This document shows, piece by piece, positions 46,816-49,341 of a stretch of 64,000 nt of DNA; position 1 is the stretch's first letter, and every line of letters begins with the position of its first letter. The notes under the pieces are model-generated. The model was not told where the DNA came from, searched no databases, and saw only the letters and a list, made by a program, of their open reading frames with translations. The position numbers and the translations under genes were made by a program. The stretch lies in UHGV virus genome UHGV-0149956. One strand, 5' to 3'. The DNA is from a virus.

Positions 46816-47445
46816 ATGAACATACCACCCAGGGCGACTAGGACTGTTTTTTGTGTCGGTAGCGGTCCGTCACTCACTCGTGAGGACTGTGCTGCTATAG
46901 AAAAAACTGGCTGTTCAATCATCGCGGTTAACAATTCCTGGCAGATGTTCGATGACATTTATGCCTTATACGCCGGTGATTTGTCATGGTGGAAGCAATA
47001 CGGATCCACCATACCGGGAGGGAGATTCCGCAAAGTGACAGCCAACCTGGCGGCGGCGAAATCATTTTCGTTGGAGTACAGGCGATATTGTGGACCGGCG
47101 GAAGGGGTAAATAGCGGCGCGCAGGCTATCAGTCTGGCTGCTGAATCAGGGGCTGAAGTAGTGGTATTAGTCGGCTATGACTGTTCTCTGCAAAACGGCC
47201 TTCATTGGCATGGCGCGCACCCTCAAGCACTACGGAATCCAACGCAGGTGTCTATTTCAAAATGGCAACAGCAGTTCCTGGATACCCGCAAAAAACACGC
47301 AGATTTACATATTTTGAATGCAAGTAGGAGCAGTGCAATTCAATGTTTCCCAAGAATAAATTTAGAGGCAGTGATCGCGTTATTATCGTCGGCAGTGGCC
47401 CAAGCGCCGCAAACTTTGTTGCGCCGCGCGGAGTGCCGATTATAG
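46816..47445 (+). CDS. Hypothetical protein, GSGPS-motif family (paralog A)
   Basis: FCVGSGPSL...IIAVNNSW...VLVGYDC; start chosen at internal Met of ORF 46783. Confidence 0.4.
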   Translation: MNIPPRATRTVFCVGSGPSLTREDCAAIEKTGCSIIAVNNSWQMFDDIYALYAGDLSWWKQYGSTIPGGRFRKVTANLAAAKSFSLEYRRYCGPAEGVNSGAQAISLAAESGAEVVVLVGYDCSLQNGLHWHGAHPQALRNPTQVSISKWQQQFLDTRKKHADLHILNASRSSAIQCFPRINLEAVIALLSSAVAQAPQTLLRRAECRL

Positions 47446-47969
47446 CGGTCAATGGGGCCATCGACTGGCTTAACCGCGCTTCTTATTTTTTCACCCTTGA
47501 TCCATCCCCAGACAATATGCGGCGCGTTGGTCGTGGCCGCCGTCGCCGTGGTGTTTGTTATTGCATGGCACTACCCGATGTTAAAGAACGTGAAGTCAGG
47601 GATGGCGTTCTGTGCTTCCGTCGTGTGGCTGAACGCGGCACGGAGCCAAAAAATACGAATTCTCCCGAGTGGTGGGCGTGGCGCTGGTCCGCTCATTTCG
47701 GCCTTTGCGAAGATGAGAATGAAATTGCCAGCGGCAATAGTGCATATGGTGCTCTGAACCTGGCTTTCCATATCGGATTCAAACATGTAGCCCTGGTGGG
47801 CGTTGACGCTACGCAAGAACCACGCGTTCACTCCGGCGGCACGCCAAAAAATCTAAGTCACCTGCCTTTGTTATTCCAGTCTGCGCGTGAACAGATTGAC
47901 GTTGTTTCATGCGGGAAAATGGGAGGTATTCCGCAGATGACTCTTAAAGAATGGCTGAAGAATACATGA
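47343..47969 (+). CDS. Hypothetical protein, GSGPS-motif family (paralog B)
   Basis: IIVGSGPSA...IIAVNGAID...LVGVDA, same motif order as paralog A. Confidence 0.4.
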
Positions 47970-48643
47970 TGGCACCCACAATTTATCACCGTATCGACGG
48001 TACCAAATACAGGAATGTCTGGGTTGTTGGTGATCTGCATGGTTGCTACACCAGACTGATGTCCGAACTCCATCGTGTGGATTTTGACCCGGCGCAGGAT
48101 TTACTGATATCGGTCGGCGACCTTATCGATCGCGGTACTGAAAATGTCGAATGTCTGGAACTATTGCAGATGCCCTGGTTCAGGGCAGTGATGGGGAACC
48201 ATGAGCGGTTGATGCTCGATGCGTTAAGTCCTGATGGCAACGTGAATAACTGGCTAATGAATGGTGGACAATGGTTCTTCATGTTGGACACTGATCAGGA
48301 AATATTAGCCAGGGCGCTGGTGGAGCTGGTAAGACGTCTGCCCTATATCATTGAGTTGAACACCGGGCAAGAAACTATCGTTATAGCCCATGCCGACTAT
48401 CCGGATAATGAATATCAATTCGGTAAGGAGGTGCCGCTTTTCAACGTTGTCTGGGCGCGCGAGCGTATCAGTGATTCGATGGATGATATTGGTGGCGAAA
48501 TTTCGGGCGCAGATCGTTTTATCTTTGGTCACACTCCGGTGAAAAGCCCGAAGACATTCTGGAATCAGCATTATATCGACACTGGTGCCGTATTTTGCGG
48601 AAACCTGACATTGATCAAAGTGAAAGGTGATGGTGCAGCATGA
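47951..48643 (+). CDS. ppp: Ser/Thr protein phosphatase, lambda-PPase family
   Basis: [52 protein letters not shown]: full metallophosphatase motif set. Confidence 0.85.
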
Positions 48644-49341
48644 AGATTGCTTTAGTTCTTCGCTCTGGTGGTGACTATAACGCTTCCGATGTGCAGTGGC
48701 TGGTTAATCAACTGCCAAAAGGCTATGAAATTATTTGCCTGACAGACCTGAAGCGTTTACATGTACCTGGCGTCAAAGTTATCCCATTGATCAACCAGTG
48801 GCAAAAGTGCCGTGGCTGGTGGGCGAAAATTGAGTTGTTCCGACCGGATATAACCGATGATCTGTTCTATCTGGATTTGGACACGGTTATTGCCGGTGAT
48901 ATACGCCCAATCCTTGAGAATCCACCAACCAGCTTCACCATGCTTAGGGATTTTTACCATCCACAATATCGTGGTAGCGGTGCCCTGTGGATACCAAATA
49001 GTGTAAAAGCGCATATCTGGAGTGCATTCTGGCAAGATCCGGAAGGTTGGATTGCTCGTTGTGTTACTACTGAATGCTGGGGTGATCAGGGGTTTTTGCG
49101 GAAGGTTATGGGTGATGATACACCAGCATTTCAGGATCTGTATCCAGGATGGTTTGTAAGTTACAAGGCCGATGTTGTGGAACCTGGTTCAAAATATGCG
49201 AGCGCGCGTTACTCCAGGGGGAATGGGACATTACCAAAGGACTGCCGAATAATCTTTTTCCACGGCAAACCGCGGCCTCGCGAAGTGTCAGAGGATTGGC
49301 TTCCCCTCATTAGCTCGTTTTTTGAGCGAGAATCAGAATAA
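48640..49341 (+). CDS. Possible nucleotide-sugar transferase-like protein (DxD-type motif)
   Basis: 233 aa with YLDLDTVI (DxD-like) motif. Confidence 0.3.

Follow-up and report, generated by a model that had tools for sequence, protein, structure and literature searches.

A phage P1 operon encoding a predicted glycan-building cassette of two paralogous Maf-like proteins and a GT8-like glycosyltransferase, interrupted by a lineage-specific phosphatase gene

Positions 46000–50000 of the 64,000-nucleotide window analysed here (a stretch of the virus genome UHGV-0149956) are 98.8% identical to phage P1 over their full length and 97–98% identical to P7, SJ46, RCS47 and other P1-like phage-plasmids. 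The source phage is of the P1 type, and four consecutive open reading frames (ORFs) in this region are P1 pmgO, pmgP, ppp and pmgQ (Table 1). We propose with moderate confidence that PmgO, PmgP and PmgQ form a soluble, cytoplasmic, three-enzyme cassette that builds a glycan from host donors, with a virion protein as the acceptor to which we lean, and that the phosphatase Ppp lies outside it. Annotation of all four genes goes back to the P1 genome paper, with 'putative morphogenetic function' as a placeholder since 2004. The RefSeq labels are 'alpha-2;3-sialyltransferase' (pmgO), 'metallophosphoesterase' (ppp) and 'glycosyltransferase' (pmgQ), and pmgP has the database label 'norphogenetic protein'; a literature search found no paper on the function of the PmgO, PmgP or PmgQ families in phages. 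The locus is known; what is new is the paralogy of PmgP with PmgO, the spread of an O/P/Q cassette with interchangeable partners, the independence of Ppp, and a hypothesis on the donors and acceptor. An earlier note, made from the sequence alone, had viewed the four products as one small modification module acting on host proteins or surface structures early in infection.

PmgO and PmgP share the motif series VGSGPS (residues 14–19 in PmgO and 16–21 in PmgP), IIAVN (35–39 and 33–37) and VGxD (VGYD at 119–122 and VGVD at 152–155), by which the earlier note had recognised them as adjacent paralogs. BLASTP aligns their N-terminal 36 residues only (E = 0.004), but profile–profile comparison (using alignments of 104 sequences each) extends the match to 160 columns with 97.9% probability and E = 3.4e-13, and AlphaFold models of the two proteins (mean predicted local distance difference test scores of 94.6 and 95.4) return an identical ranked list of structural neighbours. 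The profile score and the common neighbours place the paralogy well beyond chance, although it is ancient. Invariant in both families are the glycine-loop GPS, an Asn following strand 2, an Asp following strand 3, an N-S-(G/A) motif and GxD; the conserved histidines H130 of PmgO and H173 of PmgP do not align with each other. Both proteins are basic (isoelectric points of 9.0 and 9.5), and none of the proteins has a transmembrane segment. In PHROGs, PmgO belongs to family 4603 ('alpha-2,3-sialyltransferase') and PmgP to family 2111 (function unknown), with weak cross-matches between them. Single-sequence searches of the Protein Data Bank (PDB) with PmgO, PmgP and PmgQ gave chance-level matches only, and NCBIfam and PADLOC yielded nothing useful for the three; a defence or anti-defence role was set aside for want of a PADLOC match. 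The successive genes overlap by 103, 19 and 4 nucleotides, and the first of these overlaps, read in different frames, codes for both the GSGPS loop of PmgP and the C-terminal tail of PmgO, a tail that exceeds the usual homolog length (~180–190 amino acids).

The sole Pfam match of PmgO and PmgP is MptE-like (PF01973), which covers only the C-terminal third of the model and is sub-threshold (23.1 bits for PmgO and 20.9 for PmgP, with the cut-off at 34.6); precomputed PF01973 matches are present in a minority of the homologs. The AlphaFold models nevertheless have the three-dimensional fold of the MptE-like/DUF115 superfamily, such that the relationship raised in the earlier note holds for the predicted fold and falls short in Pfam score. 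Among the structural neighbours, Maf aligns over more residues and scores higher than proteins of the MptE/thiamin-pyrophosphokinase type; SteA, thiamin pyrophosphokinases and eukaryotic GT29 sialyltransferases are further neighbours, and a BFVD structure search returned unnamed phage proteins and MptE-like labels only. Maf proteins are flagellin nonulosonic-acid O-glycosyltransferases with a PF01973/DUF115 core (PDB 5MU5), and at ~630 residues with flanking domains they are much larger than PmgO and PmgP, which are bare domains of ~200 residues. The latter also differ in being phage-encoded and paired, and in having phage genes as neighbours rather than any link to flagellin or nonulosonic-acid synthesis genes. 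In the central domain of Maf an Asp/Glu, a Ser and an Asp are essential by mutagenesis (CbMaf D272, S334 and D357). The invariant D55, S100 and D122 of PmgO and D53, S133 and D155 of PmgP fit the order seen in CbMaf and its spacing of 22–23 residues from Ser to Asp, and from this motif spacing we infer that they may be equivalent to the Maf catalytic residues.

The lone Pfam match could be taken to mean that PmgO and PmgP are not glycosyltransferases, but enzymes with a small-molecule substrate, either ATP-dependent pyrophosphokinases of the MptE/thiamin-pyrophosphokinase type or hydrolases of nucleotide sugars. We consider this quite unlikely given the stronger structural alignment to Maf and the conservation, as judged by motif spacing, of the residues essential in Maf; the genes found beside pmgO (see below) point the same way.

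The sialyltransferase label of PmgO in databases has its origin in the GT42 enzymes CstI and CstII. In a collinear hidden Markov model alignment PmgO GPSL falls onto CstII GNGPSL, and N-S-G...G-Y-D onto T-S-G...G-I-D (S132, D154), but this alignment is sub-threshold (E about 1.1 for the PmgO profile against CstII, not significant) and the aligned segment stops short of the region of His188, which with Tyr156/Tyr162 is catalytic in CstII. K-12 hosts are not known to make CMP-sialic acid. 'Alpha-2,3-sialyltransferase' is thus an over-specific and unsupported label. A different connection is provided by WaaZ (GT73), which uses CMP-Kdo (Kdo, 3-deoxy-D-manno-oct-2-ulosonic acid) as the Kdo III transferase of the E. 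coli lipopolysaccharide (LPS) inner core. It is the only one of seven E. coli Waa proteins matched by the PmgO and PmgP profiles; the match runs over two collinear segments (E = 6.5e-5 and 9.4e-6 in a database of 20 sequences), which cover the same two motif regions. The similarity is very weak, with an hhalign probability of 14% and a score for PmgP of 11.8 bits against a cut-off of 200 for the NCBIfam WaaZ model TIGR04437, which PmgO does not match; WaaZ is also longer (283 amino acids) and is encoded in the waa cluster. We suggest that PmgO and PmgP, each a single domain, are related to the Maf, GT42 and WaaZ CMP-ulosonic-acid transferases, with common donor-side residues (GxGPS, Asn, Asp, N-S-G/A and GxD) and differing acceptor sides.

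PmgQ (233 amino acids; PHROG 1962, E = 1.3e-127) has its closest relatives of solved structure among GT8 enzymes. Its profile matches Skp1 alpha-galactosyltransferase (6MW5, E = 1.7e-7), glycogenin (E = 1.4e-6) and GlyE (5gvv, E = 1.6e-4), as well as E. coli WaaJ (E = 1e-6) and WaaO. Across the 112 sequences of its family D79 and D81 form an invariant DxD, and G148-D149-Q150 and H208 are conserved; the DxD, GDQ and C-terminal His align with the same motifs of 6MW5 and glycogenin, and PmgQ shares with GT8 enzymes the GDQ catalytic motif and a C-terminal H-x-G...P. The possible nucleotide-sugar transferase with a DxD motif that the earlier note had pointed out is strengthened by these matches. 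PmgQ differs from GT8 enzymes in its shorter length, its own N-terminal LRSGG motif, its membership of a phage-specific family and its lack of a Pfam GT8 match; weak Pfam GT-A matches are seen in 2 of the 112 family members, and one of the 112 matches PF01501 (Glyco_transf_8; E = 0.005). By its motifs and profile matches PmgQ is a putative nucleotide-sugar transferase resembling GT8, and we predict that it is a retaining-type hexosyltransferase.

The neighbourhoods of distant homologs were collected from viral contigs, genomes and assemblies, and their ORFs labelled with family profiles. A P1-centred alignment scan of viral contigs gave P1 clones only; the later contig scans were led by distant sequences, and the genome scan used 15 sequences. 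Across 144 loci outside the P1-like group, the cassettes centre on a pmgO-like gene. In 53 of these it is followed by a gene for a GT9-like (heptosyltransferase-like) protein of ~300 amino acids and then usually (39 loci, with 14 lacking it) by one for an S-adenosylmethionine-dependent methyltransferase of ~205 amino acids. The order O-Q is present in 11 loci (with 6 further gapped variants) and O-P-Q in 7 (with 5 gapped variants), including lambdoid prophages and other phages; a pmgP-like gene without O and Q occurs at one locus. The GT9-like alternative partner matches E. coli WaaF and passes the Pfam GT9 cut-off in phage C2, the methyltransferases are of small-molecule or sugar type (Methyltransf_23, TylF), and one cassette has an extra Nucleotid_trans-like gene. 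Natural fusions join O to P (P0377, 376 amino acids), to the GT9-like protein (P0361 and P0451) and to a TylF-like sugar O-methyltransferase (P0456), and tandem O-O proteins are also found. Judged from gene order, O, P and Q are a linked glyco-modification set in many phages, with interchangeable partners. The PmgO family has 7,882 representatives (E ≤ 1e-3, 50% identity) and is almost confined to Proteobacteria and their phages, in a survey that is biased by the search patterns used.

In one metagenomic sequence (P0385, 556 amino acids) a PmgO-like ORF continues, with no intervening stop codon, into a protein that starts 'MANKIIL...' and has Big_1 and Big_13 bacterial immunoglobulin-like domains. 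Domains of these types are typical of phage surface proteins, and P0385 may be either a real fusion or a read-through of adjacent genes.

The conserved partners and the fusions suggest that the substrates of PmgO-like proteins are sugars, and not pterins or thiamin. In the neighbourhoods that were examined we saw no genes for pterins or thiamin; this and the nature of the partners, which are glycosyltransferases and methyltransferases of sugar type, speak against the pyrophosphokinase alternative. The same neighbourhoods bear on whether the cassette instead decorates the bases of phage DNA for protection against restriction. Phage glycosyltransferases are classically DNA-modifying (PMC12619734), and DNA methyltransferase genes are present in some of the same prophages. 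This alternative was nonetheless rejected, and we regard it as extremely improbable: no base hydroxymethylase or other base-activating enzyme is annotated in the loci with listed genes, the folds are unlike those of known DNA glycosyltransferases, and the cassette methyltransferases are of the small-molecule or sugar type. P1 DNA is also not known to be hypermodified.

Ppp is a lambda-type phosphatase, as the earlier note had stated, and an intact ortholog of the lambda enzyme. It aligns with lambda Ser/Thr phosphatase (NinI; 1G5B) end to end over 219 residues (E = 5.4e-95) with the GDxHG, GDxxDRG, GNHE and metal-site motifs intact, and differs by a 10-residue N-terminal extension. It matches Pfam Metallophos (E = 1e-15, 59.1 bits against a cut-off of 21.5) and NCBIfam PRK11439 (E = 2.5e-83), where its 279 bits do not reach the PrpA/PrpB equivalog cut-off of 326; on these scores it is a close homolog, and not an equivalog, of chromosomal PrpA/PrpB. 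The genomic contexts of the two phage genes differ, with the lambda gene in the nin region (PHROG 'NinI-like') and the P1 gene inside the glycosyltransferase cassette.

That all four proteins form one integrated module, in which Ppp dephosphorylation and glycosylation cooperate on host proteins early in infection, would accord with the overlap of the genes and their co-transcription from a C1-controlled promoter, as in P1 and close relatives, and with the order O-P-Ppp-Q in 92 of 98 P1-like loci. However, the distribution of Ppp is at odds with this. P1-like phage-plasmids whose PmgP is 70–80% identical to that of P1 have O-P-Ppp-Q, whereas those with 62–67% identity have O-P-Q-pmgR-pmgS without Ppp; the O-P-Q sets of lambdoid prophages also lack it; a Ppp-like gene is nearby in only one of the 144 loci that are not P1-like; and phage D6, which lacks pmgOPQ, carries a ppp of 90% identity among genes of nin type. 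This distribution shows that Ppp joined a cassette that already existed, and did so in the P1 lineage; it is ruled out as a member of the functional module. The lack of a phenotype on knock-down or deletion (see below) also counts against the four-protein module, and we give it very little credence. The module of the earlier note thus survives as O, P and Q, and loses its phosphatase. Ppp is predicted to be a functional phosphatase that is co-transcribed with the cassette and mechanistically outside it.

The positions of the cassettes in other phages are relevant to the probable acceptor. In lambdoid prophages they are situated after the antiterminator Q gene and before the lysis genes, at the start of the late operon, or between the lysis and terminase genes. 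In D3, PAJU2 and HK97-like contigs they lie among the head–tail connector genes, L005 and L006 likewise have them inside head–tail genes, and the PmgO-like PAJU2 ORF010 is annotated as a 'structural protein'. The P1 operon is located between divergent tail/baseplate genes and pmgR, a gene essential for head completion. The early-infection timing of the earlier note is only half right: in P1 a C1 operator and a predicted sigma-70 promoter lie upstream, and in most other phages the cassettes are in late operons or structural blocks.

Two observations concern particular structural regions. In the Caulobacter jumbo phage C2 (300 kb) a block between the tail-fibre genes and a lysozyme gene (gp163–gp168; L410:6959-11489) consists of a PmgO-like gene, three ~270-amino-acid genes without known function, a methyltransferase gene and a gene for a bona fide GT9 protein; this arrangement shows that the association of PmgO with GT9 and methyltransferase proteins is ancient. 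Phages with a cassette in the head–tail region have in common a repeat protein encoded beside the portal gene (PAJU2 ORF007, L169:3248-4252; L005:5415-6329; L006:6496-7518), with a conserved C-terminal domain and a middle that varies between PxDGxSVTxDDV repeats and a collagen-like array of GEKGERGE. This protein may form a head fibre and would then be a candidate for the glycan acceptor. Inspection of the capsid-region proteins in D3- and PAJU2-type phages for tails rich in Ser/Thr gave no useful information.

In mycobacteriophages, glycosyltransferase genes reportedly lie in or beside the structural block, and in related phages here there are likewise glycosyltransferase and methyltransferase genes in or beside that block. 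The hosts differ in being Gram-negative. Virion glycosylation in mycobacteriophages (Freeman et al. 2023, summarised in PMC12619734) is a precedent for phage protein glycosylation. A further literature search, on phage heptosyltransferases and tail-fibre glycosylation, found nothing relevant.

The principal rival to a virion protein as acceptor is the LPS core, since every family involved has a counterpart in the E. coli waa cluster. PmgO and PmgP would then add inner-core Kdo in the manner of WaaZ, and PmgQ would act like the outer-core enzymes WaaJ and WaaO, during lytic growth. Newly made lipid A-core altered in this way at the inner membrane could mask or truncate the receptor, leading to superinfection exclusion or to less loss of progeny on debris. 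P1 adsorbs to the LPS core. The matches to WaaZ, WaaJ, WaaO and WaaF described above, the near-confinement of the PmgO family to Proteobacteria and the basic character of PmgO and PmgP, as expected of enzymes at a membrane surface, all fit such a role. Against it, the resemblance to WaaZ is weak, the taxonomic survey is biased by its search patterns, and the best solved relatives of PmgQ are protein-glycan GT8 enzymes, with no GT8 enzyme of LPS or lipooligosaccharide cores among the solved-structure matches. Little new LPS would surface within one latent period, and classical lysogenic conversion was discarded because the operon is repressed in the P1 lysogen and the cassettes of other phages are in late operons. 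We regard remodelling of the LPS core as a doubtful but serious possibility, and slightly favour a phage or virion protein as acceptor because the best solved relatives of both classes of enzyme are cytoplasmic enzymes that glycosylate proteins, because of the structural or late position of the cassettes, and because of the mycobacteriophage precedent.

For the three-enzyme cassette we envisage the following sequence of reactions. The donors must be host pools, because neither the phage nor the cassettes encode sugar-nucleotide synthesis genes, and plausibly would be CMP-Kdo, the sole CMP-ulosonic acid in E. coli K-12, and a UDP-hexose. When expressed in E. coli, Maf enzymes O-glycosylate Ser/Thr with CMP-Kdo as the donor. 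PmgO and PmgP would add one or two Kdo-type residues, perhaps to Ser/Thr of a protein that the phage makes, probably one of the virion, PmgQ would then add a hexose from a UDP-sugar, and in the commoner cassette type the GT9-like enzyme would add heptose and the methyltransferase would cap the glycan. A broader proposal is that P1, like thousands of phages that infect Proteobacteria, attaches O-linked glycans to its own virion proteins in the cytoplasm by means of a mobile cassette of which a minimal Maf-like PmgO is the constant member. The glycan would be short, with Kdo followed by heptose or hexose and with O-methylation in some cases, and would resemble the LPS inner core; it would be made entirely from host CMP-Kdo, ADP-heptose and UDP-sugars. 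This proposal, glycan included, is put forward tentatively and is on balance unlikely in its full extent.

Several points weigh against the glycan-building cassette and its virion acceptor. In its main text, the paper on the P1 virion proteome does not mention PmgO, PmgP or PmgQ, and it reports no glycosylation, which was not looked for. The equivalence to the Maf catalytic residues is drawn from motif spacing and not from superposition, PmgO and PmgP score below the Pfam MptE-like gathering threshold, and PmgQ has no Pfam family. The closest E. coli families (WaaZ, WaaJ/WaaO and WaaF) all act on the LPS core, and morons are often inserted in structural operons, such that synteny is suggestive only.

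The coordinates of the genes and signals are shown in Table 1. With a promoter, a C1 operator and pmgN upstream and a hairpin after pmgQ, the transcription unit is pmgN-pmgO-pmgP-ppp-pmgQ; according to the P1 annotation it is repressed by C1 in the prophage, and it would be expressed in lytic growth. The promoter PpmgN was missed by our own promoter scan owing to its 15-nucleotide spacer. The window has nine C1-operator-like sites (0.3 expected by chance), and Oppp, with four mismatches to the consensus used, falls outside the 3-mismatch limit of that search. The hairpin probably marks the 3′ end of the operon. It is flanked by two inverted C1 operators, such that 66 bp (49343–49408) hold both the end of the pmgN–pmgQ operon and the repressor control of pmgR-pmgS. 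Between pmgM and pmgN a scan gave no terminator-like site, and late read-through into the operon from LPpmgL is possible.

Table 1. Genes and regulatory features at the pmgN–pmgQ locus. Coordinates are those of the window (window coordinate = P1 coordinate − 32809, by which P1 GenBank features were mapped).
Feature	Coordinates	Strand	Description
LPpmgL	45686–45704	+	Late promoter upstream of pmgL-pmgM; P1 annotation transferred
pmgM	46041–46619		Directly upstream of the operon; VRR-NUC-type nuclease (see text)
PpmgN	46587–46613	+	Predicted sigma-70 promoter; TTGAAC, 15-nucleotide spacer, CATATT; P1 annotation transferred
Oppp (former Op83)	46626–46642	−	C1 repressor operator; P1 annotation; window reads TATGCACTAATTAATTT
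pmgN	46686–46841	+	Small acidic ORF, 51 amino acids; GTG start at 46686, GGGAGA upstream; overlaps pmgO start
pmgO, alternative start	46783	+	Used in P1 record; 220 amino acids
pmgO	46816–47445	+	209 amino acids; Maf/GT42/MptE-like single-domain enzyme (predicted)
pmgO/pmgP overlap	47343–47445		Different frames
pmgP	47343–47969	+	208 amino acids; distant PmgO paralog, same fold
ppp	47951–48643	+	Lambda-type Ser/Thr (PPP-family) metallophosphatase; lineage-specific insertion between pmgP and pmgQ
pmgQ	48640–49341	+	GT8-like DxD glycosyltransferase (glycogenin/Skp1 alpha-GalT-like, predicted); family outside Pfam
C1 operators	49343–49359 and 49392–49408		Assigned in P1 record to the next operon, pmgR-pmgS
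Hairpin and U-run	49368–49395	+	Terminator-like, directly 3′ of pmgQ stop; −13.4 kcal/mol, z = −5.66 against shuffles
pap	50978–51484	+	Second phosphatase gene (see text)

In published P1 deletion and CRISPR interference (CRISPRi) surveys pmgO, pmgP, ppp and pmgQ are all dispensable for plaque formation on laboratory E. coli; as regards plaque formation, the lack of a deletion phenotype that the earlier note had named as counting against its reading thus holds for all four genes, although this is a weak criterion for an accessory function. The same surveys are discordant for pmgN, which is non-essential by deletion but gives an efficiency of plating of 1.4e-2 with CRISPRi. This is a ~70-fold reduction, whereas deletion of pmgN and knock-down of every downstream gene are without effect; the CRISPRi target adjoins the C1 operator and promoter. 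PmgN has no family match and is not conserved beyond P1-like elements.

The genes on either side include two with likely nucleic-acid functions. PmgM is a VRR-NUC-type nuclease by both its Pfam match (E = 3e-4, just under the cut-off) and its RefSeq label, and not a morphogenetic protein. Pap, encoded 1.6 kb 3′ of pmgQ, scores 44.1 bits (cut-off 27.6) with Pfam HAD_PNKP, the phosphatase domain of HAD type found in polynucleotide kinase-phosphatase. This suggests a role in the repair of nucleic-acid 3′ ends, in contrast to the P1 annotation as an 'acid phosphatase'.

P1 is a reference phage, and two of its labels can be corrected: 'alpha-2,3-sialyltransferase' is over-specific for PmgO, and the 'norphogenetic protein' PmgP is a paralog of it. 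The phosphatase should not be read as a member of the module. If the cassette builds a glycan, it would define a class of glycosylation systems in phages of Gram-negative hosts that is both large and unstudied, with very small Maf-like transferases that possibly use CMP-Kdo; if virion proteins are the acceptors, it would also give coliphages their first known virion glycosylation system. Glycosylation of the virion or of the receptor could affect how immunogenic and how stable the phage is, as well as its host range and superinfection exclusion.

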